DNA of 64,000 bases from an uncultured Saccharicrinis sp. (GTDB taxonomy: Bacteria; Bacteroidota; Bacteroidia; Bacteroidales; Marinilabiliaceae): positions 4,518,082-4,582,081 of the forward strand of contig OY776216.1 of the NCBI GenBank assembly GCA_963675435.1, in the 5' to 3' direction. The notes below the pieces were generated by a model. That model was not told the DNA's origin, did no database searches, and saw only the letters and a list, made by a program, of their open reading frames with translations. Positions 2,362 to 64,000 of the stretch are shown here, one piece after another. Both the position numbers and the translations under genes were made by a program. The stretch's first letter is position 1. Every line of letters starts with the position of its first letter.

Positions 2362-5153
<2,792 letters not shown>

Positions 5154-13134: not shown

Positions 13135-13136
13135 GA

Positions 13137-13577: not shown

Positions 13578-13807
13578 TATATAATATATTCTGGTTCTTT
13601 AGGTTTTTCTTTTCCAAGCTTTATTCTGTTCCAAACTCGCTCATGCCAGTAATACAAAAACAGCTTTGTAAATACTTCAACGCCACTAATAGATGCAGCC
13701 ATACCAACCTTTCCGGTAATAAGATAAGATACCAGAAAAGTATCTATAGTTCCTGTTACCCGCCAGGATATGGTTTTAATGAATGTCCTGTATCTTTTAT
13801 CTTTCAT
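13577..13807 (-). CDS. DUF2061-family small membrane protein
   Basis: 76 aa with the motifs KTISWRV.GT and HERVW, typical of DUF2061. It overlaps the downstream start by 1 nt. Confidence 0.6.
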   Translation of the reverse strand: MKDKRYRTFIKTISWRVTGTIDTFLVSYLITGKVGMAASISGVEVFTKLFLYYWHERVWNRIKLGKEKPKEPEYII

Positions 13808-14061
13808 CTTTTGCTATTTAGCTGTTTATCACTGGAAATCATTTATTACACCAGTAAATTTGAGTTGCCCTTTCTGGTGCATTCTGCAATTCCAATTTTG
13901 TACCCAACACACCACCTTGTTTGCATTGGGCTATATTAAACCGGGTTTTCAGTCCATGTAGAACATCTAAGTATAAAATAGAAATACTCTTAAAAAGAAG
14001 CCTCACAACCAAAATACTGCGAACTGAAATCTGCTGAATGACGACAATAAACTAACTCCTA

Positions 14062-40789: not shown

Positions 40790-42250
40790 ACCAGGAGTTA
40801 AACGTTATGCTTTGTATACTTTCTTCTTATACTCATTGTTCGACACAACCTCTCGTTATATCGTTTATTAACAGACATCTGGCCTTCTTTTAGTTTTAAC
40901 TTCTCCTGATTAATATTACCTTTTTATACCCTACGCCATCAATGGTGCAATTAAAATTTTAAGCTGTCCTTACAGGACGATGATTTAATTAATTAAATAT
41001 TACCCCAGATGATATCTGGGGCTAAAATAAGTTGGGCATTCAGCCCGTAGTTTTGTTACTGAAAGTTGGAAGAACCATTCGAGATTAAACTACTATTTTT
41101 CAAAAAGTAAAAAATCAAAATTACTTCGTTTAGGTTTTCATAGGTTATTAACTAAAGGTCTGTTATACTATAACCTTTCTCCTTTAACCTTACTTCCATA
41201 TTCTCATTGCTCGGCATAGCGTCTCGCTATGTCGTTTTTTAACAGGCCTCTGGCCTTCATTTAGTTTTAACTTCTCATGCTGGTGCGAGCTTATAGATCG
41301 TATCTCATATCTTTAATTATTATACTTTACCTCAATTAGTCATAAAATAATTAACCTTATACCCTTTCTTCATGTTCCCTTTATTCGCTCAAGCCGCTAG
41401 GCTCCTACTTTTTGCTACAGCTCAAAAAGTAGGCAAAAAAGCCGCCGGCTGCACCTGATTCACTCAAAAAACTACGATGTTTTCGTCGAAAGCGCTGAAA
41501 CTTGACTTTCGTACCTCAAGTCTTCGAACAACACCGCTTTTACCGACTACAGCATCTTGTTTTATTGGCTCACCAGCTAATGCCGGAAGAACCAGTCGAG
41601 ATTGAACTACTATTTTTCAATAAGTAAATATTTAGAATTCCTTCGTTTAGGTTTTCATTGGTCACTAAGTAAAAGTCTGTTATACTTTAACCTTTTCTCC
41701 TTTAACCTTACTTCCATATTCTCATTGCTCGGCATAGCGTCCCGCTATGTCGTTTTTTAACAGGCCTCTGGCCATGTTTAGTTTTAACTTCTCATGCTGG
41801 TGTGAGCTTATAGCTCGTATCTCATATCTTTAATTATTATTCTTTACACTAATTAGTCGTAAATAATTAACCTTATACCCTTTCTTCATGTTCCCTTTAT
41901 TCGCTCAAGCCGCTAGGCTCCTACTTTTTGCTTCAGCTCAAAAAGTAGGCAAAAGAGCCGCCGGCTGCACCTGATTCGCTCAAAAAACTACGGTGTCTTC
42001 GTCGAAAGCGCTGAAACTTAACTTTCATACCTCAAGTCTTCAAACAACACCGCTTTTACCGACTTCAACATCTTGTTTTTTTGGCTCACCAGCTAATGCC
42101 GGAAGAACCAGTCGAGATTGAACTACTATTTTTCAATATGTAAATAATCAAAATTCCTTCGTTTAGGTTTTCATAAGTCATTAATTAAAGCCTGTTATAC
42201 TTTAACCTTTTTCCTTTAACCTTGTTTCTTACTCCTTTCTCCTTGTTCCT
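40790..42250. repeat. Non-coding tandem direct repeat, unit about 517-526 bp, two full units plus diverged partial units at both ends
   Basis: The marker AGAACCA(T/G)TCGAGATT(A/G)AACTACTATTTTTCAA recurs at 41071, 41588 and 42114. No ORF of 60 aa or more appears on either strand. The region holds many short hairpins. Confidence 0.85.
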
Positions 42251-43587: not shown

Positions 43588-43870
43588 AGTAGTATTATTA
43601 AACGTTAATAGACGTATTTAGCCGTTTATAAAACGGTTAGAACAAGAAATTGTAGGTAGTTTGCAAATAAAAATCATGAATGACAGACCTGTTATTTATT
43701 TAAACAGAATTCAAAAGGAAAGGCAGAAGAAACCATAATTGGAGATTGTTCTTATTTTAATGGAGTTTTACAACCTATTTGTAAATATTAACTAGGAAGT
43801 AGACCACCTATTAATTGAAAAGTATACCACTTATTAACAACGAAATTATTTATGGTTTCGTTACAAACGA

Positions 43871-45406
43871 ATGATAAGTATGTATACAAAACAAGAAATA
43901 ATAATAAAAAGCTATCGAGAAGGGAAAAGTCAACGTTCTATATCTCGCACCTTACAGATAAGCAGAAAAACCGTAAAGAAGTACATAACAGAGTATGAAA
44001 AAAAGCTTTCAGAATCAGAGGATAAAGAAACAGTAAGTGCCAATTATCTATCGACAGTACCAAAATATAAAAGCCGCTCTCTACACAGGAGAAAACTAAC
44101 CCAAGAAGTACAAGACGAAATAGATAAACTACTTGAAGTCAACCGGGAGAAAAAGCTTCAAGGTTTACGAAAGCAGGTACTTAAAAAGGCAGATATATTT
44201 CAGCAATTGCAATTACAGGGTTTTGAGATTGGCTATACAACTGTTTGCAACTATATCCGCTCAAAAGAAAAATCATCTTCTCCCAAAGAAGCTTTTATTC
44301 GACAAGTATATAGTCCGGGCAGTATTTGTGAATTTGATTGGGGCGAAATAAAACTTCGTATCAACGGCAAACAAGAGCGCTTCCAATTAGCAGTTTTCAC
44401 CAGTGCTTACAGCAACTATCGTCATGCCGTGCTATATTATCGTCAAGATACACTTGCGTTTATGGAAGCCCACGTATCTTTTTTCAATAAAACAAACGGC
44501 GTTTATGAGCAAATGGTTTATGACAACATGCGGGTTGCCGTGGCAAAATTTATTGGTCCTCACGAAAAAGAACCAACACGGGCTTTGCTTCAATTACGAG
44601 GTCATTACCAGTTTACTCATCGTTTTTGTAATGCTTACCGAGGCAACGAAAAAGGGCATGTGGAAAGAAGTGTTGAATACATCCGACGGAAAGCTTTTGG
44701 TGTAAAGGATGATTTCAACAGGCTTTCAGAAGCCGCAGAATATTTAAACACCATTCTGGAACGATTAAATAATACCAAACAAAAACAAAGTGGCAAAACA
44801 GCTTTAGAACTGTTTGAAGATGAGAAAGTGGTATTAGGGAAATTACCGGCTGTACCGCTTGTCTGTTCAGACCAAATACAATTGCGCGCCGACAAATATG
44901 CAACAATCAGTCATAAAACCAATAGGTATTCGGTACCGGACCATCTGGTAGGTCAATTTCTAGATGTTCATTTATTGAGTCACGAAATACATGTTTATCA
45001 TGAAAATAAAAAGATAGCCATACACACCAGAAATTACGGCAAGCACCAATGGATAATCTCTATAGAGCATTATTTGAACACTTTCAAGCAAAAGCCGGGA
45101 GCTTTGCCGGGTAGTTTGGCATTAGCAAGCAACGTATATTTAAAACAGCTCTTTTTAGACCATTTTCAAGAAGAACCACGAAACTTTATTGACCTGTTAG
45201 ATTATTGTCGTAAGTACCGCATAAGCGGCGAAAAACTGGAGAAATCGGTATTTCGATTACTGAGTACCGGTTCCGGTGGTATTACTATAGAAAAACTAAA
45301 AGCTGTATTGGGCAATAATGAATCATTTATTACACCCGAACAAAACTGTTCCATTGCTCAATTAGCAAAAAATCAATTGTCGGAAATAAGTGCATTAATG
45401 AATTAA
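43871..45406 (+). CDS. istA: IS21-family transposase IstA
   Basis: 511 aa with an N-terminal HTH (GKSQRSISRTLQISRKTVKKY) and a DDE core. Confidence 0.88.
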   Translation: MISMYTKQEIIIKSYREGKSQRSISRTLQISRKTVKKYITEYEKKLSESEDKETVSANYLSTVPKYKSRSLHRRKLTQEVQDEIDKLLEVNREKKLQGLRKQVLKKADIFQQLQLQGFEIGYTTVCNYIRSKEKSSSPKEAFIRQVYSPGSICEFDWGEIKLRINGKQERFQLAVFTSAYSNYRHAVLYYRQDTLAFMEAHVSFFNKTNGVYEQMVYDNMRVAVAKFIGPHEKEPTRALLQLRGHYQFTHRFCNAYRGNEKGHVERSVEYIRRKAFGVKDDFNRLSEAAEYLNTILERLNNTKQKQSGKTALELFEDEKVVLGKLPAVPLVCSDQIQLRADKYATISHKTNRYSVPDHLVGQFLDVHLLSHEIHVYHENKKIAIHTRNYGKHQWIISIEHYLNTFKQKPGALPGSLALASNVYLKQLFLDHFQEEPRNFIDLLDYCRKYRISGEKLEKSVFRLLSTGSGGITIEKLKAVLGNNESFITPEQNCSIAQLAKNQLSEISALMN

Positions 45407-45414
45407 AAAATAAG

Positions 45415-46170
45415 ATGATGAATACCATAAATGAAGATATAATCAAATACAGTAAAGAGTTACGGCTACCTGTTTTCAGAAGAGATTTTAAAGAGTTAGC
45501 CACAGAAGCAGCAAGCGGACAACTGGATTATGAAGAGTACTTGTTAAAGCTGATGGAGCGAGAGTATGAATTGCGTATAGAAAATCGAAAAAAGACGCAA
45601 ATACGTCTAGCTGGCTTTCCATCCAAGATGTACCTGAATCAACTGGAACGAGAACAGTTGCCCGATGATGCTCGCGCAAAACTCCCGGTATTAGAACGAC
45701 TTGATTTTATAAACTCTGGTCAAAATATCATACTGGCCGGTAATCCTGGCACCGGGAAAACTCACATCGCTATTGGTTTGGGCTTAAAAGCATGCCTTCA
45801 GGGATACCGTGTCCTCTTCACCTCTGTTCATCGGATGTTGACCCAATTAAGAGAATCTCAATCAGAAAGGACTTTGCGTCAATTAGAGCTCCGTTTTGAA
45901 AAGTATGATTTAGTAATCTGTGATGAATTTGGCTATGTATCATTTGATAAAACCGGAGCCGAATTACTATTCAATCATTTATCACTAAGAGCAGGTAGAA
46001 AGTCTACCATAATAACAACAAACTTGGGCTTTGACCGCTGGGAAGAAATCTTTGGAGATGCCGTTTTAACAGCTGCACTAGTCGATAGATTAACTCACAA
46101 AGCCCATTTGGTAAACATGAACGGCGAATCATACCGATTAAAAGAAACAAAAAAAATCTTAGCTAAGTAA
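45415..46170 (+). CDS. istB: IS21-family ATP-binding helper IstB
   Basis: 251 aa with Walker A GNPGTGKTH and Walker B LVICDEFGY. Confidence 0.9.
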   Translation: MMNTINEDIIKYSKELRLPVFRRDFKELATEAASGQLDYEEYLLKLMEREYELRIENRKKTQIRLAGFPSKMYLNQLEREQLPDDARAKLPVLERLDFINSGQNIILAGNPGTGKTHIAIGLGLKACLQGYRVLFTSVHRMLTQLRESQSERTLRQLELRFEKYDLVICDEFGYVSFDKTGAELLFNHLSLRAGRKSTIITTNLGFDRWEEIFGDAVLTAALVDRLTHKAHLVNMNGESYRLKETKKILAK

Positions 46171-46407
46171 AAATGAAACTTATAAAAAATCGTTCCCCGG
46201 TTCCTCTCCTGATTGGGGTACCCCAATCAGGAGAGGAATACCTTTGTCTTTTAAATCAAATGGTATACTTTTGAACTGAAATACTGGTATACTTTTCAAT
46301 TGAAAAAAACAACCTATTGATAAATCGGGTTATTATTTTGGTTCAATAGCTGAGGCTTATATAGAACTTGCTAAAGAAATGAAATATTCATTTTATTTAG
46401 GACAGAT

Positions 46408-46725
46408 GTGATATTACCTCAATATTATAAGGAGTATAAACCAAAGAACTATCTGTTTGAGGGACAGATTGGAGGTCCTTATTCAGCAGGAAGTGCCGGA
46501 AAAGTATTAAAAAGGGCTATAGCTAAGAGCGGCGTACAGCAACGAGGAGGTTTACATTCATTACGTCATAGCTTTGCCACACATTTATTGGAATCAGGCA
46601 CGGATTTGCGCTATATACAAGAACTATTAGGACATAACTCCTCAAAAACCACTGAAATATATACTCACGTGAGCAATAAATATTTACAACAGATTAAAAG
46701 TCCACTAGACGACTTAAATGTTTAA
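46408..46725 (+). pseudogene. 5'-truncated tyrosine recombinase (only the last ~105 codons; Xer-like, paralogous to 56023-56850)
   Basis: Contains [16 protein letters not shown] and the TEIYTHV catalytic Tyr region, and ends IKSPLDDL. An in-frame stop lies 12 codons upstream, and no N-terminal or core-binding domain is present. Confidence 0.8.
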
Positions 46726-46840
46726 AAAATAAATTATATTAGCTAGCAAAAATACATAAGACATAATAAAAATAACCGAAATACTATGTCGATTATTGAA
46801 ATAATTGACATAGTACTTCGGTTAGAAAGTAGTTAGCAAC
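46726..46840 (+). other. Candidate attI-like junction region: 46-bp hairpin (46776-46821), then GTTAGAAAG and GTTAGCAAC boxes
   Basis: CCGAAATACTATGTC-loop-GACATAGTACTTCGG. GTTAGCAAC (46832-46840) is the exact reverse complement of GTTGCTAAC at 52843-52851. Confidence 0.45.
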
Positions 46841-47185
46841 AAGGCCACTAAAGAAATAACGTAAGAGTAATTAAGGAGAATTTATTTTGTTTTTTGCCCT
46901 CACGTCTTTTCAACTAGAGCCAGCCCACAACCAGCACATTTGCAAATCGCACAACCCGACCCACAACCAAAATTTGCAAAAGAGCTGTTTTCCACCCACA
47001 ATAATATTTTTAAGGGATATCATTTTTTACTAGGACAACATTTGGCAGTCCTCCAAAGTAGCTTTGTGATTATTAATCATTTTAAATTTATAAGTATGAA
47101 AGATTTTAATAAATCATTGGCTACAGATTTGACTATTACTCAAAGTAAAGATTTTCGCTTATTTAATAAAACTATTGATGACACA

Positions 47186-48151
47186 ATGTTTGTAAGTCAG
47201 ATTATTAAATGCGTGAAGCAAATGTTATTAACTTTACTTTTTTCATTATTTACATTAAGTATTCAGGCTCATGAGTTGAGCATTAATTTAACCGAAAGCG
47301 GCACATTAGGAAGTGTAATTCAGGCTGAAGATAACGGCTATATTGATATTACAGATTTAACTATTTCAGGTCCAATGAATGCAAAGGATTTTGGTTGGAT
47401 AAAAAGAACAATTAGAACTTTGTGGTACTTGGATATTTCAAATGTCACAATTGAATCGGTATCAACTATCTTGGGTACAGATTATGGAACTTCAAGAACC
47501 TATCCTGCTAACGAAATACCTACATTAGCATTTGAAAACTCAGTTCTTGTTTCAATTAAATTACCAACCTCATTAAAATCGATTGGAGAAAAGGCATTTA
47601 ATGTATGCCGAGAACTGACGAGTATTGATTTAGAAAATACAAAGATTGAAACTCTGACTAAATTCTCAATAACAAATTCACATGAAATAGAAAATCTGAC
47701 AATGCCGGAGACTTTAAGGCAAGTTAATTATAGAGCATTAGCAGGTGTCACATTAAATACGTTAACTCTGAATTCCGAATTAGAATTAATAAAATCCGGA
47801 GCTTTTTATACGTGTTATTTGCAAAAAATAGTAATTTCAAAAGCCATTTCAGTTGAGATAACGACAGAGTTGCCATTTGAAGACGGAACAGAAGGATCAA
47901 ATACATTGGAAATAATAGCAAATTCTGAAGATATATTGGCTCACAGTTATTGGAGCACATTTGCGACAATAATCAATAATGACATCACAACAGATGTTCA
48001 TACTGTTAAATATGAAGAAAAAGCAGAAATAAAGGCAATTTATGATATGAATGGAAACAGTATGAGTATTGATTTAAACCAATTGCCTTGTGGTACATAC
48101 ATCATTGTGTATTCGGATGGACGTAAAGAAAAAGTATGTATTCAAAATTAA
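47186..48151 (+). CDS. BspA-type leucine-rich-repeat (LRR_5) protein with a T9SS-type C-terminal sorting domain
   Basis: The track ORF starts at TTG 46940 inside a palindromic repeat. Met at 47186 gives a signal peptide (MFVSQIIKCVKQMLLTLLFSLFTLSIQA). LRR units include IPTLAFENS...LKSIGEKAF. The C-terminal ...LPCGTYIIVYSDGRKEKVCIQN resembles a Por/T9SS CTD. Confidence 0.65.
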   Translation: MFVSQIIKCVKQMLLTLLFSLFTLSIQAHELSINLTESGTLGSVIQAEDNGYIDITDLTISGPMNAKDFGWIKRTIRTLWYLDISNVTIESVSTILGTDYGTSRTYPANEIPTLAFENSVLVSIKLPTSLKSIGEKAFNVCRELTSIDLENTKIETLTKFSITNSHEIENLTMPETLRQVNYRALAGVTLNTLTLNSELELIKSGAFYTCYLQKIVISKAISVEITTELPFEDGTEGSNTLEIIANSEDILAHSYWSTFATIINNDITTDVHTVKYEEKAEIKAIYDMNGNSMSIDLNQLPCGTYIIVYSDGRKEKVCIQN

Positions 48152-48163
48152 CTAGTAAAGGAA

Positions 48164-48412
48164 ATGACAAGATTTAAGTTTATGCTTGATGTTTGGATAA
48201 CTTTTTATTTTGAGAAAAAGTTTCATATCGGTCGAACAATTATAGAAAATGATATTGAAACAGTAGCCTGTGTTTCAGAAAGTGGAGATATAAAAATGAT
48301 TCGCTTTTCTCAAATCTGTAATCCAAAGCAACTGAAATTGCTAAAGGATATGAGCGTTTCAGATTATAAAGTTGATACAAGGGATATTGATTTTGATACG
48401 AATTCTAACTGA
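48164..48412 (+). CDS. Hypothetical protein
   Basis: 82 aa ORF starting 12 bp after the LRR gene. No recognisable motif. Confidence 0.4.
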   Translation: MTRFKFMLDVWITFYFEKKFHIGRTIIENDIETVACVSESGDIKMIRFSQICNPKQLKLLKDMSVSDYKVDTRDIDFDTNSN

Positions 48413-48448
48413 ATAAATGTTCGTTAATAATTAATACATCAATTACAG

Positions 48449-49357
48449 ATGATAGAAAATAGTAGCTTAACCAAGTTGATGCGTTGCAAAATAATAATTG
48501 AGGAAGTTGAAAAAGGCACTTATCCTACCGGAGAATATTTGCTCGATAGAATTGCTCGTTGGCTTGAAGGTTTTAAAGAGCTAATTCCTGATATAAAAAC
48601 AGAAATTTCAGAAAGGACACTAAGCAGAGATCGAAAAAATATTAAGGAGATTTTCAATATTGATATTAGCTACGATACAAAGCGAAAAGGCTATTATATT
48701 GGTGAGACCTATAATAAAAGCGATCGGATATTAAGAGCATTGGATGCAATACACGTTTTCTTCATTCAAAAAAACATACCAAATGCTAATAAACACATCC
48801 GGTTTGCGCCTCGTCAAGCTTCAGGTTCGGAACATTTTTTTCATATTCTGAAAGCCATTGAGGATAAAAAGAAGGTTCAGTTTTTTTACGAGCAATACGA
48901 AAAGCAAGAGGAAACACAACGAAGTGTATCTCCATTAGGCTTAAAAGAGTTTAAAGGCTTTTGGTATATGATTGCAGAAGACGAGAAAGGCATAAAAACA
49001 TTTGGTTTAGATCGAATCAAAGGCTTGAATATCACTTTAGAAAATGCGGTTTCCCGAAAGGGTTTTAATATTGACGAGTATTACAAGCATTGTTATGGAA
49101 TTGTTCGTTTACCAAATGACGAACCTCAGGAAATAATTATAAAAACCACTGCGATAAAAGCTAAATACTACAAGGCAAATAAACTGCATACATCTCAAAA
49201 TATAATAAAGACGCAAAACGATGACCAATACCCATATACAATTACGCTACACATGTATCTTACATACGATCTTCAACAAGAATTACGTTCGCATGGAGAG
49301 AAAGAGTTAAAAGTTATACAACCGGAGAATGCTCTGGAGAATGAAAGATATTTTTAA
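48449..49357 (+). CDS. HTH-WYL-domain transcriptional regulator (BrxR/CapW/PafBC-like architecture)
   Basis: 302 aa. N-terminal wHTH-like region (ISERTLSRDRKNIKEIF.IDISYD.KRKGYY). Central WYL-type beta-barrel (V.FFYEQY....QRSVSPLGLKEFKGFWYMIAED). C-terminal extension. Confidence 0.7.
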   Translation: MIENSSLTKLMRCKIIIEEVEKGTYPTGEYLLDRIARWLEGFKELIPDIKTEISERTLSRDRKNIKEIFNIDISYDTKRKGYYIGETYNKSDRILRALDAIHVFFIQKNIPNANKHIRFAPRQASGSEHFFHILKAIEDKKKVQFFYEQYEKQEETQRSVSPLGLKEFKGFWYMIAEDEKGIKTFGLDRIKGLNITLENAVSRKGFNIDEYYKHCYGIVRLPNDEPQEIIIKTTAIKAKYYKANKLHTSQNIIKTQNDDQYPYTITLHMYLTYDLQQELRSHGEKELKVIQPENALENERYF

Positions 49358-49389
49358 TGATTAGAAACTTATAAACTAATCTGAGTAAT

Positions 49390-50445
49390 ATGAAAATAGA
49401 AGAATTTAAAACATGGATGAAAGAATTTTGCGATTTTAATGATACTACAATAAATAATAGAATTTCAAATTGTCGAAAAGTAGAAAGTTGTTATGGCGAT
49501 TTGGAAGACCTTTATTGCAAAGATGGATGTACCAAGATTATAACTGCTCTGACATACTCGACCAAAGATGAAAAAGAAAACCTACCACCGAAGCATATTA
49601 TACCTATTGACGGAAATATAAGGAATGGATCAGCAACATTAAAAAGTGCTGTTAAACTGTATGTAGAGTTTGAAGAAGATTTTTCTGCTAAAGAGGAAAA
49701 AGAAAATGAGTTGATTGATGAGATGTTCGTTGAAGAGGTAGAAGATAAAATTGAGGATAAGAGCGATATGAAGAATGGTTTTAATAGTTTATTTGACCTA
49801 ATAAATACTTCAGAAGATGAATTTATTCGATTTTTTATTAAGAATACCCTTTTTATATCACCTGAGTACGTTGAAAATCAAGTGCAAGAACTTCATCAAC
49901 AGATTGAAAATGGAGAAAAGATACCGGTTCGATTTTCTTTAAAGATGAAAGAACATTTTAAGGCGACTGGCAAATATGTAAGCACCATTAAGAATCGAAA
50001 AGATGCGGTTAATATTAGTAGAGAATTTGATATTTATAGTAAAAGAAGATCAGGTGTAAAGGTGAAATTTGACTCTACCGGAAATAAATCTGTTGTCGAC
50101 GCTATTGAAAAATATACAAAATGTAGGGTAAGCACTTCTCAAAGTCACATAATAAACTACTCAATATCTCATGTTTGGGCACAAACTTTTGATCCGTTTT
50201 TCTTTTCATCTTTATGGAACATTGTATTAGTTCCAAGTTATTTAAATCCTATAATGGATAAACCTAAACATCAGCAAAAACTAAATGGTGAAATTCAAGG
50301 GCTAATAAAAGCCATTTGTAATGAATTGTATAATCCAAATGAGCTTTTGAATGATTCGTTGATTGAGATGGAGTCTGCAGTTATTTGTAAAAAAGCTAAA
50401 GAAATCATAGCAGAGGGATTAATTAATTATATAGATCTTAACTAA
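49390..50445 (+). CDS. Hypothetical protein with a C-terminal degenerate HNH (HNH_2/PF13391-like) nuclease motif
   Basis: 351 aa. SISHVWAQTFDP...LWNIVLVPSYLNPIMD resembles the HI.Pw...NgllL....fD pattern. The middle is acidic. The domain call is from memory of the family pattern only. Confidence 0.45.
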   Translation: MKIEEFKTWMKEFCDFNDTTINNRISNCRKVESCYGDLEDLYCKDGCTKIITALTYSTKDEKENLPPKHIIPIDGNIRNGSATLKSAVKLYVEFEEDFSAKEEKENELIDEMFVEEVEDKIEDKSDMKNGFNSLFDLINTSEDEFIRFFIKNTLFISPEYVENQVQELHQQIENGEKIPVRFSLKMKEHFKATGKYVSTIKNRKDAVNISREFDIYSKRRSGVKVKFDSTGNKSVVDAIEKYTKCRVSTSQSHIINYSISHVWAQTFDPFFFSSLWNIVLVPSYLNPIMDKPKHQQKLNGEIQGLIKAICNELYNPNELLNDSLIEMESAVICKKAKEIIAEGLINYIDLN

Positions 50446-50456
50446 GAAGAAACATA

Positions 50457-50870
50457 ATGGCAAAAATGTATAAGGTGAGGGTTAAAGGAACTGCTCAACT
50501 AAATGGCCCTGTAAAAGTAGACAAGACAGTTGAAATGGAAGAGCAGATGGCAATACGATTTAACGGAGCTGATCGTTATTCAGTAATTGAGTCATTTGTG
50601 CAGACTCATTACCCTGGAGTACAAATACCAAGCATTAGAGGTTTTGGTGCAGAAGTAACCCCTATAAAGGAAGCAAAAACTCCAAAGTCAAGAAAAGCAA
50701 AATCTAAATCTAAATCATCAAGAAGTACTCCATCAACAAAAGGGTTAAGCACTAAAAAGTTAATAGGTGGTGCTATTGTGGCAGCAGTTGTTGCTCCAAT
50801 AGTAAAAGAGGTCATTGGTGATGTAATTGATGAAGTAAAGGATGTACTAAAAAAAGCTAAGAAAAAATGA
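50457..50870 (+). CDS. Hypothetical small protein (globular N-domain, Lys/Ser-rich linker, hydrophobic/amphipathic C-terminus)
   Basis: 137 aa, 11 bp after the previous stop. Its stop overlaps the next start (ATGA). Confidence 0.45.
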   Translation: MAKMYKVRVKGTAQLNGPVKVDKTVEMEEQMAIRFNGADRYSVIESFVQTHYPGVQIPSIRGFGAEVTPIKEAKTPKSRKAKSKSKSSRSTPSTKGLSTKKLIGGAIVAAVVAPIVKEVIGDVIDEVKDVLKKAKKK

Positions 50871-51727
50871 TAAAACTAAAGCAAAGCTTATCCAAGATAG
50901 ATAAGGATAAGATTAAAGAATCTGCGATTGTTTTTTTATCTAATCTCAAAGAGAAGGTAAGTATTCAAGATTTAGAAAAAGTAAATAATTTTTTACCAAA
51001 TATGAATAAAGGGGTATTACAGGAGGTTTGGACAAATGTTGGTGATTTGTGGGCTTATGTAAATAATAAGGAAATTTCAATTGTTGAGAAAACTCTTCCT
51101 CTTGCAGCTTTAGTATATGTCATTAGTCCAATAGATACGATTCCTGATGGAGTCCCAATTGCTGGTTTGATCGATGATGCTTCAATTATATCTTTTATTT
51201 GTGCTTCAATTGCTTCAAAATTAGCTATTGTAAATTCAAATGACTCTTCAATAGAAAACGTAAATAACCTTATGAGTATTGAGGGGAATATCGGAATTTC
51301 AAATCCTAAGGAGAAATTAAATGTATTAACTTCTATTTTAACTCATGCTGCATATGCTGATGGAGAAATGAGTTCTATAGAAGAAGAAAAGCTTAGAGAA
51401 ATAGTAGATTTTTTTGTTTTTTCTGAAGAAGGTTGGTTTTCTACACATGAGGATTTTAATAAGGAAGAAATCTGTGTAATAATTGAGAAAACAATAAAAC
51501 AACCTCTTTCATTGAAGCAAATAATTGAGTTTGTAAATAATGTTAATGAAGATGAAGAGCAATGGTATTTTTATGCTTATGCAGTAGTAGCTTGTGATGA
51601 TGAAATTAATGCATCAGAGAGAGATTTCTTAGATCTTTTTGCCGAAAAACTTAATATTTCCAAGTTTGATGTTAGCAATATTGAAAGGAGCTTTGAAGAA
51701 GTTTGGACAATTACTGTAGAAGATTAA
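50867..51727 (+). CDS. DUF1232 (YkvA-like) membrane domain fused to a TerB-like domain
   Basis: 286 aa. SPIDTIPDGVPIAGLIDD is the DUF1232 signature. HAAYADGEMSSIEEEKL and VACDDEINASERDFL look like TerB/DjlA-N repeats. Confidence 0.6.
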   Translation: MIKLKQSLSKIDKDKIKESAIVFLSNLKEKVSIQDLEKVNNFLPNMNKGVLQEVWTNVGDLWAYVNNKEISIVEKTLPLAALVYVISPIDTIPDGVPIAGLIDDASIISFICASIASKLAIVNSNDSSIENVNNLMSIEGNIGISNPKEKLNVLTSILTHAAYADGEMSSIEEEKLREIVDFFVFSEEGWFSTHEDFNKEEICVIIEKTIKQPLSLKQIIEFVNNVNEDEEQWYFYAYAVVACDDEINASERDFLDLFAEKLNISKFDVSNIERSFEEVWTITVED

Positions 51728-51779
51728 TAATTCTGTTAATTTTAAGAGCGTTTTGTTCTAAATGATTGCAATTCTGCTT

Positions 51780-51968
51780 TAAGGAATATACAAGTATTAT
51801 TAAGGAGGAAGTGTATGGCTATAAGGAACAGAAAAGCAATCGTAAGGAACGCATGGGACACTTTAAGGAATGGAAGGGTAGCCTTAAGTAGTACAAGGGG
51901 AACCATAAGGAATGGGAAAACAACTGTAAGGAATTAACGAGCACCTTTAAGGAGGTGATAAGTTTTAT
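51780..51968 (+). repeat. Nine exactly phased 21-bp units, each starting TAAGGA(A/G) (one TAAGTAG)
   Basis: Unit starts at 51780, 51801, 51822, 51843, 51864, 51885, 51906, 51927 and 51948. Only the heptamer is conserved. A 40-codon ORF (ATG 51815) runs through units 2-8. Confidence 0.85.
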
Positions 51969-51991
51969 TTTTTTTAACCTAAACCATTTTT

Positions 51992-52651
51992 ATGGCGACA
52001 AAAAGAACATTATCAGAAGCAGAAACTCTTGAAATGTACAGAGTAGCATTAGAAAATGCAGTAACACAACCCGAAATTTCTACAGTTATGGCAGAACTTG
52101 GATATGACTCAGCCTTAATTGAAGAAGGAAAAGCAACACTTACAAAAACAAGAAAAGCTTATGATGCTAATAAAGTAGAAGATGATGAAACATCAGTAGC
52201 TTATTCTACTTTCTCAAGTAAAAAAGAACATTTAGAAGACATCTTCTCTCTTCACCGTAAAAAAGCAAAAGTTGTTTTTCGCAATGACGCAACAACAATG
52301 GATAAATTGGCAATTACAGGTTCAATTCCACGTGCATACGTAAAGTGGTTAGAAACAGTAAAGAAGTTTTATAGTGTAGCATTAAGTGATGAGACAATCC
52401 AAACTAAGTTGGTTAGATTAAAGATTACAAAGAAAGACTTGACTGCTACAAACAAACTGATTTTAGAATTAGAAACAGCACGAGCAGAATATCAAAAAGA
52501 AAAGGGAGAGTCACAAAATGCCACAAAAGCAAAAGATGCAGCATTCGCTGAAATTGATGATTGGATGAGCGAGTTTTATGCAGTTGCAAAGATTGCATTG
52601 GAAGATAGTCCACAACTATTAGAAGCCTTAGGAAAAACAGTAAAAAGCTAA
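51992..52651 (+). CDS. Hypothetical helical protein
   Basis: 219 aa, Lys/Glu/Ala-rich. No motif recognised. Confidence 0.45.
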   Translation: MATKRTLSEAETLEMYRVALENAVTQPEISTVMAELGYDSALIEEGKATLTKTRKAYDANKVEDDETSVAYSTFSSKKEHLEDIFSLHRKKAKVVFRNDATTMDKLAITGSIPRAYVKWLETVKKFYSVALSDETIQTKLVRLKITKKDLTATNKLILELETARAEYQKEKGESQNATKAKDAAFAEIDDWMSEFYAVAKIALEDSPQLLEALGKTVKS

Positions 52652-52749
52652 TGGGATAACGTCCCCGAATTGTAAGCACATTGGCAAGTCGCACAAACAG
52701 CCCACAAGCCAAAACTTGCCAAAGAGCTTACAATGCCAACCCAATCTTA

Positions 52750-52775
52750 CCGCCTGAGAGGGCGGTTTGAGTTTT
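52750..52775 (+). terminator. Rho-independent terminator
   Basis: CCGCC-TGAGAG-GGCGG followed by TTTGAGTTTT. Confidence 0.55.
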
Positions 52776-52842
52776 CCCCACGCACAAACAAAATAAAAGC
52801 TCATGATTCAAGGTGAGAGCAGTCAGAAGAATAAAAAGCCCA

Positions 52843-52979
52843 GTTGCTAACATGCCATAATAAAAAATAGCGCAGGCAGTGATTTTAGGAGGTTTTGAAT
52901 TAATAATTATCTTTATCACAGTCAGCAAGGAAAGTGCTGCGAATTGCGCTACTTTTCATATGGCAAGACCGTTATGGGC
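52843..52979 (+). other. attC-like site A (about 135 bp imperfect palindrome)
   Basis: R'' is GTTGCTAAC. L'' ATGCCATAATAAAAAATAGCGC pairs with L' GCGCTACTTTTCATATGGCA. R' is GTTATGGGC. Confidence 0.7.
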
Positions 52980-53013
52980 AATATCATGAGCGCCACGAAT
53001 AAAACATAAAAAA

Positions 53014-53667
53014 ATGAAATACGACAAAGAAAAGTACAAGATTTGGAACTGGAAAAGTCCTGTGATATTGCATTGGATAATAAATCCTGGATTTGTAATT
53101 AATGAGTTGATTTTAGGGCAGACTATCCCGAAAGTAATGTTAATAGAACGGGAAGGGAAAAAGCCTTTTTATCAACGCTCGTTAGTACCATGTCCTCACT
53201 GTGGAGAATTACATTCAGGGTTAAAGTATTCTGCAGCGAACAAGACAGCATTTAAAAACTGGTTTGGTTTTTACTGTGACAATTGCAAAGAAATAATTCC
53301 AGTACAGAGAAATCTGACTTCATTCATTATATTGACAATTACTTTTCCTATTTGGGGATGGTTTAAACAAACAATAAAACAAAAGTGGTTAGACAAACAA
53401 CCTGAAAGATATAAAAACTTGAATCTTGAAATTATTGAAAAGAAAAATACAACGAAGAATTGGTTAAAATCAGGACTTTTCTTAGGACTATTCATGTTTA
53501 TTGCAATGCAAATTATTTTCCCATTAATTAAGAGTGAGGAAATTACTAAGAAAAATATTTTGATTGGAATACCATTATGGCTTATTTGCGGACTTGTTTG
53601 GGGATTAACTATGAAATGGTGGATGAATAAAAGGGGAAAAGAAAATACAGCCCATAACAATGCATAA
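53014..53667 (+). CDS. Cassette ORF: membrane protein with an internal zinc-ribbon (CPHC...CDNC)
   Basis: 217 aa. The attC R'' box GCCCATAAC lies inside its last codons. Confidence 0.5.
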   Translation: MKYDKEKYKIWNWKSPVILHWIINPGFVINELILGQTIPKVMLIEREGKKPFYQRSLVPCPHCGELHSGLKYSAANKTAFKNWFGFYCDNCKEIIPVQRNLTSFIILTITFPIWGWFKQTIKQKWLDKQPERYKNLNLEIIEKKNTTKNWLKSGLFLGLFMFIAMQIIFPLIKSEEITKKNILIGIPLWLICGLVWGLTMKWWMNKRGKENTAHNNA

Positions 53668-53847
53668 TAAGGCATGTGGGGAACCGTGATTCGCGTGCGG
53701 TGGTGATTTCTATTTGCCCGCCTAATGCTTTAAAAGTTACTTTGTGTTGTTAAATAAGTCCCTTGTAAAAGCATTAGGCTCAGTGAGGTTTGGGAAAGGG
53801 CGACAATTTCAATCCCCACACAGCCTCATATGCGAGCCGTTGTGGCC
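53650..53847 (+). other. attC-like site B (about 195 bp)
   Basis: GCCCATAAC-AATGCATAATAAGGCATGTGGGGA... pairs with ...TCCCCACACAGCCTCATATGCGAGCC-GTTGTGGCC. The internal arms CCGCCTAATGCTTT and AAAGCATTAGGC also pair. Confidence 0.7.
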
Positions 53848-53949: not shown

Positions 53950-54507
53950 ATGATTAAAATAAATGAATATAAATTATCCTCTTCAATATTATTTAGCTGT
54001 ATTATATTGATAGTGTCGGCAGTGTCATGTTTAAATAAGAATAGAGTAAGGAAATATACAGAGGAAGAGGAAAAGTTTAAGGCAGTTGTAATCAAATCTT
54101 GTGATAATTCTATAGCTAATGAAGGTTTTAAGATAGACAGTAAGTTGCTGTATGGACAATGGGAAGAATCTATAGTGTGGGTGCAGAATCAAGATTTAAC
54201 AAGAACAGGAATTAGATATATTTATCTTCGCTCTGAATATGAATTTATTAATAATGCACATTTTGGTTCGAAATTTTTTTTCAAAGATTCTTTGCTTGAT
54301 CTATATGTTGGGAAATTTAAACTTATAGAAGAGGGGACTAAAATAGAAATTATGAGCAATCTTAGAAATGATTTTGATTTTAAGAATGGAGATACTATTA
54401 GACAAGCAATTCATCGGGTTCATTTATTAAATGATTCTATATTAAGAATTGAGGAAGATCCTCGATCATGCAGGAGTGGGACAATAGTAGAATATAGAAG
54501 AAAATAA
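53950..54507 (+). CDS. Cassette ORF: hypothetical secreted/lipoprotein-like protein
   Basis: 185 aa with an N-terminal hydrophobic segment ending VSAVSC. Confidence 0.45.
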   Translation: MIKINEYKLSSSILFSCIILIVSAVSCLNKNRVRKYTEEEEKFKAVVIKSCDNSIANEGFKIDSKLLYGQWEESIVWVQNQDLTRTGIRYIYLRSEYEFINNAHFGSKFFFKDSLLDLYVGKFKLIEEGTKIEIMSNLRNDFDFKNGDTIRQAIHRVHLLNDSILRIEEDPRSCRSGTIVEYRRK

Positions 54508-54817
54508 CAGGCCACAACACTTAGAATATAATTAATCACGAACTGCCCAAAAAAGTCCCATCAAACCATCAGAGTGATTCATTATATTTGTTGTTGAACG
54601 GAACCGGGATAAGCGAGCCCATTGTATGGGGATTGATATGAAATGGGTCTTTCATTTATGCTTGGTAAGCATAAAACTCCAAAGTTAAAACAGAAAGTTT
54701 GGGTAAAAAATCATTAAAATAAAGAGTTAAAACCACCTCAATGTATAAATCGACAGTTGATTTAGCTCTTTTTGTTGGTTATAAGACATACCTTTCCCAT
54801 TACACCAAAGGCGGCGT

Positions 54818-56026
54818 TTATGATATAGAGGCAGATTGAGTTGATTTTGTATTTTTTATTGAGTTGGGACTACCTCTGATAGCCGGCTTAAAAGAGGCTA
54901 TACGTTGCATGGTGCCTTGTTTACATTTTGGGCATTGATCGTGAGGATGGCCAAAAAGCAGCACAAATAATTCCTTCCAAGGGATCCCTTTTTTAGATTC
55001 CGGGGAGCAAGCATTAAATATTTTCCGGATGATCTCTAAGCACAGTTTCTTTTTAGAGGAACCTAGAAACCCATAATGCCTTATTTTCATAAAAGCGGGA
55101 GGAAGTATATGCATGGAAAGTCTTCGCAGAAACTCAAAATAAGAAAGATGCATCACATCCACTTTAGCGTTTTTGTAGTTGAGCCACGAAAAATACACAT
55201 TATTATCATCCAGGCTTTTAATACGCTGGTTACTAATTGCAACTCTATGAGTATACCTAGCCAAGTATTCCAGCACTTGCTTAGAATTGTGCATGGGTAA
55301 TTTAGCATATACCACCCATTTATTTTTATAAAAAGGATGCAGGTATTTACGCTCTGGTTCAAAAGTAGTTTTTAAAGTAATGGTTCCCTTATTGTGTAAG
55401 TCCATCAGGTAATCGCAAAACTTACCTCTAAAAACAGCACTTAAGGCTTTAACAGGATATAAAAACTTACCTTTACTTTTTGTATTTTTCCATTTGTTTT
55501 GAGGGGTTAAACCACCGCCCGGCACAATGCAATGTACATGTGGATGAAAAACCAGGTTTTGTCCCCAGGTATGCAAAATGGCAATCATACCGGTTTGAGC
55601 GCCCAAATGTTTATAATCCAGAGCAAACTGTTTAATGGTATCCCATGCTGCCCTAAAAAGTACATTGTACATATCTCTGGGATGATCTATAAACAAAGGA
55701 TTTAGCTGTTCGGGAACGGTAAATACCACATGAAAATATTTGATGGGTAAAAGATCTGATTCTCGATCTATCAGCCACCTTTCCTTTTTCAGACCATTAC
55801 ATTTAGGGCAGTGCCTGTCTCTGCAACTATTGTATGAATATTGCTCATGACCACATTCTGAGTTGTTACATTTATCCTGATGATAGCCTAGAGCAGCCGT
55901 TCTGCAATTTCCCAGGTTTGTAAACACCTTTTTCTTATGCGCATTTAAATGTCCGGCCTCAATCACACTGTGTTTATGATCCCTGATAATAGCACCAATA
56001 TCAAATATGGGTTTACTATAGCTCAT
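54818..56026 (-). CDS. IS91-family (rolling-circle, HUH Y2) transposase with an N-terminal zinc-binding domain
   Basis: 402 aa with the cysteine cluster CRDRHCPKC, the HUH motif HPHVHCIVPGGG and YLARYTHRVAIS (Y2 region). Confidence 0.88.
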   Translation of the reverse strand: MSYSKPIFDIGAIIRDHKHSVIEAGHLNAHKKKVFTNLGNCRTAALGYHQDKCNNSECGHEQYSYNSCRDRHCPKCNGLKKERWLIDRESDLLPIKYFHVVFTVPEQLNPLFIDHPRDMYNVLFRAAWDTIKQFALDYKHLGAQTGMIAILHTWGQNLVFHPHVHCIVPGGGLTPQNKWKNTKSKGKFLYPVKALSAVFRGKFCDYLMDLHNKGTITLKTTFEPERKYLHPFYKNKWVVYAKLPMHNSKQVLEYLARYTHRVAISNQRIKSLDDNNVYFSWLNYKNAKVDVMHLSYFEFLRRLSMHILPPAFMKIRHYGFLGSSKKKLCLEIIRKIFNACSPESKKGIPWKELFVLLFGHPHDQCPKCKQGTMQRIASFKPAIRGSPNSIKNTKSTQSASIS

Positions 56027-56850
56027 CGTTGCAGCCTGTCTAAAGGCGAAATCATAGGGTTTGATTTTAGGTTGTTGCTAATTTGCAGGTATACCATGGT
56101 GGTTCTGATATCATCGTGCCCCATCATTTTTTGTATAGACACAATGTCAACGCCAATTGCCAACAAGTGTGATGCAAAAGCATGTCTCAAAGAGTGAGGT
56201 GTAAAGTGCTTTTCAATGCCAGACCTATCCAGAGCATATTGAAAACCCCACTTTACAGCCTCGTCGCTATAAGGTTTACCTTTATACCTGCCATTAAATA
56301 AATATACCTGCGGTTTAAATTGATGTAAATAGTGCTTTATTTCAGGAATGAGTGATTGGGCCAAAACAGCGTATCTGTCTTTATTGCCTTTACTGTCTTT
56401 AATATAAATACGATGGTTTTTAAAATCGAGATGCTCAATTTTAAGGTTGATAATCTCACTTTTGCGCAAACCAGCTGAATAAATAACTTTTAGTAATAGT
56501 CTGTGCTTTGGACTTATGGCAGCATTAAATAATTGCAGCAGTTCTTTCCCGGTAGGGATCAAGGGTAGATACTTTGTAGCTTTAGGGTAAGGTACATCAG
56601 AAATAATATCAATGCGCTTATACACGCTTTTATACATAAAACGCAGCCCCTGTAAGTAATTTCTGATGGTAGACCGACTCAGCTTTTGATCGTTTTTAAG
56701 ATACAGCAGAAACTCATATATTTCCATTTCCGAAAGCTCATCAGGTAGCTTACCGGAAAATAAGCAGAGTAGCTTAGTAGAACGCATATAATTAGCAATT
56801 GAGCTATTAGAAAAATGCGCTACTTCCATTCTTACATGCAGATTGTGCAA
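56023..56850 (-). CDS. Tyrosine recombinase (Xer-like), translationally coupled to the IS91-like transposase
   Basis: 275 aa from a TTG start. Motifs: AGLRKSE (Arg I), KGNKDR, HSLRHAFASHLL, MMGH, MVYLQ (Tyr). The frame continues open a further 14 codons upstream of the TTG. A nearby ATG is one frame off across an A8 tract. Confidence 0.85.
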   Translation of the reverse strand: MHNLHVRMEVAHFSNSSIANYMRSTKLLCLFSGKLPDELSEMEIYEFLLYLKNDQKLSRSTIRNYLQGLRFMYKSVYKRIDIISDVPYPKATKYLPLIPTGKELLQLFNAAISPKHRLLLKVIYSAGLRKSEIINLKIEHLDFKNHRIYIKDSKGNKDRYAVLAQSLIPEIKHYLHQFKPQVYLFNGRYKGKPYSDEAVKWGFQYALDRSGIEKHFTPHSLRHAFASHLLAIGVDIVSIQKMMGHDDIRTTMVYLQISNNLKSNPMISPLDRLQR

Positions 56851-57114
56851 TAATGCCTCAACACTCTTTGGTGTTGTTAAACTTTTTTTTCATCTTTAAT
56901 CAGTTTATTAAAATTGAAATACAAAGATGCGGTATTTTACCGTCAAAACCTCGTTGTCTACCGACGTAGGAGGTTTAGTTCAACATTTTGTATAAGTAAT
57001 GGCAGGTAATGTAGTAAATATCAAGGTTTGTAGCCCGCTCAAACTGCGCAGAAGTTTGCTAGTAAACTACCACGCAATCTGCCACTACTCATACAATTTA
57101 CCGTTAGCAGCTAT

Positions 57115-61216: not shown

Positions 61217-61502
61217 ATGCATATAAGTCATGTGGGGTGCAGGTGATTCGCTTAGGGTTGTGATTTCAATATGTCCGCCCATTGCTTTTAAATCGACACT
61301 TTCTTATTAATTTAGCCTATTGAAAAGCAATGAGCTAAGTGGGTTTTTGAGAGGTCGGACTATTTCAATCCCCACACGCCTCATATGCGTATCGTTGGGT
61401 TTCATTCCCCACATCCCACAGAAAAGCAGAATTAAATTCTTAAGCTAACGTGCAAATTTAAAGGGGATTGTGCAATTTAAAATTTGACGTTAGTCACAAT
61501 TC

Positions 61503-62778: not shown

Positions 62779-63486
62779 ATGAAAATTAAACTCGTTATTC
62801 ATCTTTTATTGCTGATAAGTTTATCTTCCTGTAAGTTTTCCAATGAGCAATATGAATCAAAAGTGTTAGATGATATTTTTCTCGATTTGTTGATTGAAAT
62901 GTCTGTACAGGGTGTCCTTTTACCTCCACCACCACCTTTACCTCTTGATTTTTTAGACACAAATTATGATACAACAGGTTATGCGCATAAAGTGGCAAAA
63001 TACGAAGAGGATATTTTATTAGAAAAGGAAAGATTAGTAAAAGAATTTCAAGATTATGGAAATAGACCTAAAGAAATGATTTTAGCTATTGCTGATTCAA
63101 TGTCAACTATGGCAAGTCTAAATAATTCTATGTTAGAAAAGGTATTTCCAACCGAAGTATTGTCCGAATTAGTAGAATCAATAGAACAAGGAATAAAGAA
63201 GAAGAGAAAGTTGCAGATAAAAGAAATAACATCAACAGGTCCTTATCAGCTTAAATATTTTAAAGACCTACCAAGAAATATTAACTATGATGATAAAAAG
63301 CTCGATTTAAAATATGTAGGAAGTATTGGTATTTCTAGAATTTACTTTGACAAAGTAAGAGAACATGGGATTTTAGGATGCAGCTATACTATGGGTGCAT
63401 TATCTGGTCATGGTGCATTAATCTGTATTAAAAAAGTAAAAAATAGGTGGATAATAATAAAAAGTATAGTAACATGGGTGTCATAA
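62779..63486 (+). CDS. Cassette ORF: hypothetical lipoprotein
   Basis: 235 aa with the signal LLLISLSSC. Confidence 0.5.
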   Translation: MKIKLVIHLLLLISLSSCKFSNEQYESKVLDDIFLDLLIEMSVQGVLLPPPPPLPLDFLDTNYDTTGYAHKVAKYEEDILLEKERLVKEFQDYGNRPKEMILAIADSMSTMASLNNSMLEKVFPTEVLSELVESIEQGIKKKRKLQIKEITSTGPYQLKYFKDLPRNINYDDKKLDLKYVGSIGISRIYFDKVREHGILGCSYTMGALSGHGALICIKKVKNRWIIIKSIVTWVS

Positions 63487-63505
63487 GAGAATAACACCAC
63501 CTAAC

Positions 63506-64000
63506 ACTTAGAATATAATTAATCACGAACTGCCCAAAAAAGTCCCATCAAACCATCAGGGTGATTCATTATATTTGTTGTTGAACGGAACCGGGATAAG
63601 CGAGCCCATTGTATGGGGATTGATATGAAATGGGTCTTTCATTTATGCTTGGTAAGCATAAAACTCCAAAGTTAAAACAGAAAGTTTGGGTATAAAAATC
63701 ATTAAAATAAAGAGTTAAAACCACCTCAATGTATAAATCGACAGTTGATTTAGCTCTTTTTGTTGGTTATAAGACATACCTTTCCCATTACACCAAAGGC
63801 GGCGTTTATGATATAGAGGCAGATTGAGTTGATTTTGTATTTTTTATTGAGTTGGGACTACCTCTGATAGCCGGCTTAAAAGAAGCTATACGTTGCATGG
63901 TGCCTTGTTTACATTTTGGGCATTGATCGTGAGGATGGCCAAAAAGCAGCACAAATAATTCCTGCCAAGGAATCCCTTTTTTAGATTCCGTGGAGCAAGC
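63506..64000 (-). mobile_element. Second copy of the IS91-like/integrase element (partial, runs off the right edge)
   Basis: Aligns base-for-base with 54519-55012, apart from four substitutions and a 1-bp indel I could see. It starts right after ACCACCTAAC. Confidence 0.85.
63806..64000 (-). CDS. IS91-family transposase, C-terminal part only (window edge)
   Basis: Homologous to 54818-55012. The stop codon is at 63806-63808 (minus strand). Confidence 0.8.
   Translation of the reverse strand, partial: ACSTESKKGIPWQELFVLLFGHPHDQCPKCKQGTMQRIASFKPAIRGSPNSIKNTKSTQSASIS

Follow-up and report, generated by a model that had tools for sequence, protein, structure and literature searches.

In type IV restriction systems of the McrBC type, the DNA-recognition module is held in the N-terminal position of McrB. 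Transcription regulators with a WYL domain co-localise with many defence systems (PMC9122601), and one of them, CapW, senses single-stranded DNA (ssDNA) (PMC11662680). TerB proteins, in turn, belong to the validated systems Shango, Bunzi, and Dionysus, all of them for defence, and may serve there in membrane surveillance (preprint 10.1101/2025.09.30.679545). The locus described here, four consecutive genes (g1 to g4) within a 64,000-nt stretch of DNA (the window) from an uncultured Saccharicrinis sp., shows likenesses to all of them. It is proposed to be a WYL-regulated, restriction-like candidate defence locus, whose effector would represent a new enzyme family and would be joined via g3 to a DUF1232–TerB membrane protein, a reading for which we consider the balance to be about even. 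As a whole, the locus would be a composite candidate anti-phage or anti-mobile-DNA module, carried by a 6.0-kb mobile unit of seven genes in a strain-variable island of this marine, Plebeiibacterium-like Bacteroidota genome. Its genes and domains are the following:

g1, 48449–49357, plus strand: open reading frame (ORF) of 302 amino acids (aa); predicted WYL-WCX transcription regulator, with a presumed N-terminal winged helix-turn-helix (wHTH)
g2, 49390–50445, plus strand: ORF of 351 aa with two domains
g2 N-terminal helical domain (aa 1–100), 49390–49689, plus strand: mobile, putative DNA-reader module
g2 core domain (aa 125–351), 49762–50445, plus strand: uncharacterised putative enzyme, probable nuclease effector
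g3, 50457–50870, plus strand: 137 aa; conserved N-terminal domain of 70 aa, Lys/Ser linker, and C-terminal hydrophobic helix
g4, 50867–51727, plus strand: 286 aa; membrane DUF1232 hairpin fused to a cytoplasmic TerB/DUF533-like domain

An earlier note on this DNA had described four plus-strand ORFs separated by 32 bp (g1–g2) and 11 bp (g2–g3), with a 4-bp overlap between g3 and g4, and ORF calling reproduces this layout exactly. It had also stated that the gene combination does not correspond to a named system, and indeed no known system is named by PADLOC, NCBIfam, or Pfam, nor is the combination recognised by PHROGs, while PADLOC-DB v2 gives no match for g2 or g3.

The centre of the locus is g2, for which no match was found at full length in Pfam, NCBIfam, PHROGs, or PADLOC. 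A word-indexed search retrieved 36 relatives, to which a repeat of the word-indexed protein search with the g2 profile added almost nothing, whereas 1.84 billion cluster representatives, searched with a profile, yielded 696 clusters with E < 1e-3, of which 110 had E < 1e-30. The family is patchy, being present in 56 loci among 185,579 species genomes of GTDB. An alignment of these relatives splits g2 into two parts, the N-terminal domain and the core, the latter being the constant part of the family.

The N-terminal domain, on the other hand, is found in front of several other domains (related proteins are given P-numbers, and compared genome loci or contigs L-numbers). In P0023, it is joined to a PD-(D/E)xK domain of the NucS_C/YhcG type, in P0025 to a PLD-like MIT_C domain (E 1.3e-40), and in other proteins to two more C-terminal domains without a family match. 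The surroundings of P0023 include methylases, SacI- and HinfI-type enzymes, an MmeI-type enzyme, McrBC, and GmrSD. The same domain heads McrB-family GTPases of approximately 930 aa on Sphingomonadales plasmids, with McrC encoded next. On the Sphingobium plasmid pNIN3 (L079, 6950–11061), the GTPase matches a solved McrB at 3.5e-55 and is followed by an McrC homologue (9.6e-21), and a Croceicoccus plasmid (L078) carries a second McrB-family GTPase with the g2 N-terminal domain, again with McrC after it. In one of these GTPases, a segment also resembles the ScoMcrA N-terminus (E 4.4e-5). Because the same place in McrB carries DNA recognition, aa 1–100 of g2 are regarded, by analogy, as a putative DNA reader.

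The core domain holds six invariant residues (F155, R181, N232, H261, P269, and N277) and eight near-invariant ones (D228, G231, W263, W276, P282, D290, K291, and Y314), and it is confidently modelled by AlphaFold2, with a predicted local distance difference test score (pLDDT) of 92.2 for full-length g2, and a pLDDT of 95.6 and a predicted template modelling score of 0.91 for the core alone. Nevertheless, Foldseek comparisons with PDB detected no fold match, the full model reaching E 1.4 at best and the core model E 3.7. Against BFVD, the full model gave nothing significant, with matches named HNH or NinG at E 2.8–8 only, and none of these Foldseek comparisons (full model against PDB and BFVD, core against PDB) fell below E = 0.49. 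The C-terminus of g2 had been proposed to be a degenerate HNH_2 nuclease motif, an idea that finds no support in Pfam, PDB profiles, Foldseek, or hhalign. A Pfam scan of 26 core segments at E <= 10 returned no HNH family, full-length members likewise gave none, a profile of 58 g2 relatives matched nothing but low-complexity noise among PDB sequences, and a core-segment profile found no HNH in PDB. When the core was compared by hhalign with an 'AHL.DHK...N...PTD' domain that shares its N-terminal domain, the motifs aligned, but with a probability of 0.45%. What the core does share with HNH_2 and other beta-beta-alpha-metal nucleases is a like predicted order, in which a first strand ends at H261, a loop leads to a second strand that begins with N277, and a helix with N286 and D290 follows, with H261 and N277 invariant. 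However, the third motif position in g2 is Asn or Ser instead of His, and matches by hidden Markov model (HMM), PDB sequence, and Foldseek are lacking. The strand–strand–helix order is compatible, in topology only, with a beta-beta-alpha-metal site, and the HNH_2 idea is retained as a lead from modelling and not as a result.

The core is, nonetheless, a probable nuclease, because the reader domain that precedes it in g2 is joined to nucleases elsewhere, an argument by analogy drawn from domain swapping, and g2 as a whole looks like a new restriction-type anti-phage effector. The core itself also takes part in fusions, with an LRR_5 (leucine-rich repeat, LRR) array without signal peptide, an HExxH metallopeptidase-like region, or zinc ribbons. 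They are found in the Treponema metagenome-assembled genomes L036, L038, L039, and L043, and in P0093, P0086, and P0143.

The product of g1 matches Pfam WYL (PF13280) at aa 129–193 (E 5.5e-15) and the generic WYL models of PADLOC (E 1.9e-22), and the PDB profile comparison agrees with its earlier assignment as a WYL regulator. In this comparison, a family profile made from 17 g1-like proteins scored 1.2e-25 with PafBC, 2.5e-15 with DriD, 2.5e-6 with CapW, and 5.8e-6 with BrxR, the alignment with DriD extending over profile positions 111–295 and DriD residues 161–340, which comprise the WYL and the C-terminal WCX region. Pfam WCX matches seven g1-like neighbours of g2 relatives, but not g1. No Pfam HTH family matches g1, the N-terminal motif 'SERTLSRDRKNI...GYYI' was spotted by eye only, and a single-sequence alignment with CapW over g1 aa 65–192 is weak (E 0.51). 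Because the profile scores favour PafBC and DriD, g1 is, judged by its sequence, a WYL-WCX regulator that is not specially BrxR- or CapW-like, and the BrxR/CapW type named for it in the earlier note is not favoured by these scores.

These scores also fit a different reading, in which the locus would be a DNA-damage operon rather than an immune one, with a DriD/PafBC-like g1, a repair nuclease in g2, and a membrane stress response mediated by g3 and g4. The original description of TerB as part of a cassette for stress resistance, and the housekeeping neighbourhoods of several g2 relatives, speak in the same direction. However, the unit is mobile, strain-variable, and adjoins insertion sequence (IS) elements, the g2 family is patchy as described above, its N-terminal domain is common to McrB and to nucleases from restriction islands, and defence genes recur among the neighbours of g2 relatives, and a DNA-damage function is considered quite unlikely.

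Regarding the last two genes, the Lys/Ser linker and hydrophobic tail that had been described for the 137-aa g3 protein agree with alignment and hydropathy: its C-terminal hydrophobic helix spans approximately aa 101–121 (Kyte-Doolittle 2.1), after the Lys/Ser-rich linker. The protein has no family match in Pfam, NCBIfam, PHROGs, or PADLOC. For g4, Pfam agrees with the earlier description as DUF1232 plus a TerB-like domain, with matches to DUF1232 (4.5e-11), DUF533 (4.4e-8; 33.3 bits, cut-off 29.6), and TerB (4e-7; 30.8 bits, cut-off 24.4), the hydrophobic segments being located in the DUF1232 part. PADLOC gives g4 weak matches only, to PDC-S48 (E 0.0015) and PD-T4-9_A (E 0.01). The architecture of g4 is rare, with only 8 clusters in 5.8 billion proteins. 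Wherever the upstream gene is visible, a tailed g3 stands directly before g4, and the hydrophobic tail of g3 is present only when g4 follows.

A stand-alone g3–g4 pair in contig L070 is accompanied by further genes (10190–15005 and 3130–4832) encoding a TerB-like protein of 168 aa, a protein kinase–AAA protein (580 aa), an HSP70-like protein (850 aa), and AbiEii/DUF6088, which together look like a conflict-system cluster.

The association among the four genes was followed across the 56 GTDB genome loci and metagenomic contigs, where ORFs were called and searched with the proteins of the window. All neighbours within four genes of g2 relatives were clustered, and the counts, given over 49 non-redundant loci, are the following:

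g1-family WYL regulator: 18 of 49 loci, on any side and any strand, all within the 23 closer relatives
LRR_5 protein: 16 of 49 loci, nine of them directly downstream
g3-like ORF: 7 of 49 loci, six of them directly downstream
82-aa ORF (o82): 4 of 49 loci, mostly two genes upstream
g4: 3 of 49 loci, namely the window, L001, and L003 only

Homologues of o82 adjoin g2 relatives in L001, L014, and L029. The LRR_5 proteins encoded directly downstream of g2 relatives (Prevotella, Bacteroidaceae), or fused to them (Treponema, P0093), have no signal peptide. A g3 N-terminal domain without tail follows directly after a core-only g2 in L026, L027, L031, and L032 (Dysgonomonas, Bacteroides, Odoribacter, and Butyricimonas), and L070–L075 hold a tailed g3 with g4. 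The four genes are the junction of two modules, with g3 common to both, and not one conserved system, because g1 with g2 and g3 with g4 each occur without the other pair, and g4 accompanies g2 in the closest relatives only. Of the four-gene module that had been proposed, the adjacency therefore stands, while the idea of a single conserved system does not.

Such a junction could also be fortuitous, with two unrelated modules brought side by side by gene accretion in the island: a regulated DNA-acting enzyme, g1–g2 (and perhaps g3), and a membrane-stress pair, g3–g4, without any coupling between them. This is what would be expected from the restriction of g4 to three of the loci with g2, from the long contig L070, which carries g3–g4 without g1 or g2 within 8 kb, from L002, L007, and L013, which carry g1 and g2 but not g4, and from L003, where a foreign gene splits g2 from g3. 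On the other hand, the g3 N-terminal domain is common to both settings, directly after g2 in four distant genomes and before g4 at every g4 locus, and so speaks for a physical connection via g3. Co-transcription is in line with the gap of 11 bp, the overlap of 4 bp, and the lack of an internal terminator. A mere juxtaposition is thus regarded as unlikely, although it deserves serious consideration.

The recurrence of a small ORF directly downstream of g2 is also what a toxin–antitoxin (TA)-like addiction pair would show, in which g2 would be the toxin and the g3 N-terminal domain its antidote, stabilising the 6-kb unit. The mobility of the unit and the TA genes found near N-domain proteins on plasmids are in line with it. 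However, a g3-like partner is present in only 7 of the 49 loci, many g2 relatives pair with LRR_5 or WYL proteins instead, and a dedicated WYL regulator is atypical for type II TA systems, all of which renders this explanation very improbable.

The defence context of the family was examined as a plain tally of Pfam and PADLOC matches among the 195 proteins encoded within two genes of g2 relatives. The matches include type I and type III restriction, a DRT reverse transcriptase, MzaA, PifA, QatA, GajB, and PD-T4-6, as well as several PDC candidates, GmrSD_N, KAP NTPases, and DUF2779; many of the 195 neighbours have no match. The survey of homologue neighbourhoods that the earlier note had called for places g2 relatives and their N-terminal domain among restriction and defence genes, and some g2 relatives also among housekeeping genes.

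Several observations weigh against a defence locus built in this way. No known-system model of PADLOC fits the locus, housekeeping genes are numerous around g2 relatives, and in Pfam and NCBIfam scans the island of the window itself holds no recognised defence gene besides this candidate. The g2 core lacks an HNH or other nuclease match by HMM or fold, and the profile scores of g1 are better with PafBC and DriD, both regulators of the response to DNA damage, than with BrxR or CapW. The evidence that couples g2, g3, and g4 is gene order in three related loci, in one of which (L003) the gene that stands between g2 and g3 encodes a cargo protein of the type IX secretion system (T9SS). The lack of g2 homologues in phage records and their presence in only two IMG/VR contigs is counted on the same side, although as neutral evidence.

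If the locus is indeed a restriction-like defence system, g1 would bind an operator and keep the operon low, until its WYL domain detects nucleic acid as a signal (probably ssDNA, by comparison with DriD, PafBC, and CapW) and releases or activates transcription. As the effector, g2 would be targeted to DNA by its reader domain, and its core would cut or otherwise modify nucleic acid in a manner similar to type IV restriction. The N-terminal domain of g3 would bind g2, and its tail would tether the complex to g4 at the membrane. This tether may couple g2 to the state of the membrane, or restrain it accordingly, through a role of TerB in membrane surveillance.

The larger unit that carries the four genes was delimited by comparison with L001, a metagenomic contig of 145 kb that encodes a g2 of 84% identity. 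Its ends, and its remaining genes and signals, are the following:

left boundary 9-mer GTTAGCAAC, 46832–46840, plus strand: homology with L001 starts exactly here; L001 reads GTTGGCAAC
hairpin inside the left end, 46932–46987, plus strand: DNA fold with a conserved loop, CGCACAA..CCCACAA..CAAAA
LRR_5 gene, 47222–48151, plus strand: BspA-type, with signal peptide and T9SS-like C-terminal tail (Pfam LRR_5 6.6e-19); ratio of non-synonymous to synonymous substitution rates (dN/dS) 0.14
o82, 48164–48412, plus strand: 82-aa ORF, dN/dS 0.21
PQLLE-family gene, 51992–52651, plus strand: last gene of the unit (NCBIfam NF052641, 7.3e-80), dN/dS 0.07
intrinsic-terminator-like hairpin with T tract, 52749–52776, plus strand: sole strong one on the plus strand of the unit
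right boundary 9-mer, 52843–52851, minus strand: GTTGCTAAC on the plus strand, inverted relative to the left one

Comparison by blastn shows homology of approximately 86–87% with L001 over 46832–52863, which stops around 12 nt past GTTGCTAAC, the flanks on both sides being unrelated. The pair of 9-mers alone is not significant, since the 2 matches of GTTAGCAAC in the window, for an expectation of 0.4, are also attained in 5 of 100 shuffles. Despite this, they are taken as the real ends of the unit because the shared homology starts and ends there, in agreement with the boundaries that had been drawn at 46832 and 52843. On this sequence comparison, 46832–52863 are the ends of a mobile unit of approximately 6.0 kb with seven genes: LRR_5, o82, g1 to g4, and the PQLLE-family gene. 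A second copy of the left-end hairpin is located inside the right end (52669–52734), in direct orientation and with two compensatory changes in its 9-bp stem. An Rfam scan of the 40–64 kb region of the window gave no real match, hairpins included.

Within this unit, o82, which has no family match in Pfam or NCBIfam, lies 12 bp after the LRR_5 gene and 36 bp before g1, a packing as tight as that of g1 to g4. Because the two upstream genes are equally tightly packed, the operon probably comprises six genes (LRR_5, o82, and g1 to g4) rather than four. On the plus strand, no terminator-like site was found between g1 and g4, the strong one being located past the PQLLE-family gene, and in promoter scans neither Bacteroidetes-type nor sigma-70 motifs rose above chance. 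The dN/dS values against L001 range from 0.07 to 0.21 across all seven genes, indicating that they are real and under constraint by purifying selection. Between g4 and the PQLLE-family gene, nine TAAGGA(A/G) cores are arranged in exact 21-nt phase (51780–51954, plus strand), with a counterpart of ten phased copies in L001 (10382–10571). Judged by its sequence, this array resembles a series of iterons or operators along one face of the helix.

The LRR_5 product of the window is probably a surface protein, and the gene has been set aside as a candidate cytoplasmic sensor partner, given the signal peptide and the T9SS-like tail of the window copy and of its orthologue. Compared with L001 (4932–5861), the window has lost approximately 930 bp at 47202/47235, and with them the greater part of a 324-aa gene as well as the original start of LRR_5. 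A long ORF with a TTG start (46940–48151) is an artefact of the fusion left by this deletion.

The flanks of the unit hold other mobile elements and repeats:

IS21 copy, 43813–46301: IstA and IstB, with 37-nt inverted ends
two-ORF IS91-like element, 54498–56900: integrase at 56023–56850 and Y2 transposase at 54818–56026
long imperfect palindromes, 52852–53000, 53660–53835, and 61230–61390, and 11480–11650 in L001: three are approximately 78% identical to one another

A tyrosine-recombinase fragment (46408–46725), consisting of a 105-aa C-terminal part, ends 107 bp before the left boundary and shares 39% identity with the integrase of the IS91-like element. The end region of this element recurs, at 99% identity, at the end of the window (63485–64000). 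The N-terminal half of the recombinase was looked for upstream of the IS21 insertion and not found. Right after the fragment, and 8 nt before the left boundary, there is a near-perfect 52-nt hairpin (AACCGAAATAC...GTACTTCGGTT, 46773–46824) with two mismatched positions. To the right of the unit, small ORFs on the same strand are spaced by imperfect palindromes of 150–200 nt, which start after ...AAC and continue with CGTT..., and a 192-nt repeat family is found at 57836, 58734, and 61484. The long palindromes may be attC-like or REP (repetitive extragenic palindromic)-like elements; the one that follows the unit differs between the window and L001.

These surroundings bear on how the unit moves, a matter on which the earlier note had pointed to chromosomal integron cassettes. 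According to this explanation, which concerns mobility only, 46832–52863 would be a chromosomal integron gene cassette moved by an integron integrase via attC. The unit shares with gene cassettes its discreteness, the GTT...AAC-type cores at its boundaries, and the array of downstream ORFs in the same direction with long imperfect palindromes between them, and the recombinase fragment near its left boundary could be added to this list. However, unlike a gene cassette, the unit has seven genes and its own terminator, its boundary cores are inverted and not direct, the homology with L001 breaks off where the palindrome begins and does not extend across it, and the palindrome is not common to this second genome. 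Tested as a boundary of the array in general, GTTNNNAAC shows no enrichment, with 28 sites in the window where 21.9 +/- 5.1 would be expected. No IntI-type integrase is present, nor any integrase beside the unit in L001, and the recombinase fragment, set against IntI1, lacks the IntI-specific insertion. The cassette reading is weak because this fragment resembles the IS91-like integrase and not IntI, and we hold movement by an integron to be highly improbable. Of the mobilisable cassette first described, mobility is thus retained, for a unit of seven genes.

Further to the left, the flank at 29–40 kb is core genome common to Plebeiibacterium sediminum. At the junction between these core genes and the variable island, there is a tandem repeat (40805–42250) of approximately 517 bp in roughly three copies, with 79–99% identity and without long ORFs.

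The main novelty of the locus is the g2 family, together with its LRR, WYL, and McrB-reader connections. If the locus is a defence system, it would add to WYL-regulated or restriction-type immunity a new effector family without a relative in Pfam, NCBIfam, PADLOC, or PDB, and the link of this effector to a TerB membrane module by a small adaptor would provide a handle on the role of TerB in defence. Similarly, should the g2 core be gated by LRR proteins, it would represent a bacterial immune architecture of LRR sensor plus effector without NTPase. With LRR_5 proteins that lack a signal peptide near g2 relatives in the loci counted above and fused to them in others, the family would be a rare case of LRR-based intracellular sensing in bacteria. 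The ends of the unit, mapped by comparison, define a 6.0-kb fragment. More tentatively, and with more doubt than confidence, the g2 core could represent both a novel fold and a new family among immune effector enzymes, distributed over Bacteroidota and Spirochaetota, gated by interchangeable modules (a WYL regulator, an McrB-type reader, or an adjacent or fused cytoplasmic BspA-type LRR protein), and wired in this locus, via a tail-anchored g3, to a TerB membrane sensor.

In comparison with the wHTH-WYL-WCX regulators (BrxR, CapW, DriD, and PafBC), g1 shares the WYL domain, a WCX-like C-terminus, and a site beside its presumed target, and members of its family accompany g2 relatives in 18 of the 23 closer loci. 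It differs in having no HTH match in Pfam, and its profile lies nearer to PafBC and DriD than to BrxR and CapW.

With SngA of Shango, BnzA of Bunzi, and DinB of Dionysus, g4 shares the TerB/DUF533-like domain. It is also membrane-bound, and TerB is proposed to be a membrane surveyor. However, the locus does not match the PADLOC models of these systems, to which both the fusion with DUF1232 and the tail-anchored g3 partner are foreign.

Finally, compared with McrBC and with the single-chain reader–nuclease fusions, g2 has no GTPase or ATPase match and its core fits no known nuclease family or fold, whereas its N-terminal domain stands where McrB proteins carry their variable reader, and is also fused to NucS-like and PLD-like nuclease domains within restriction islands.

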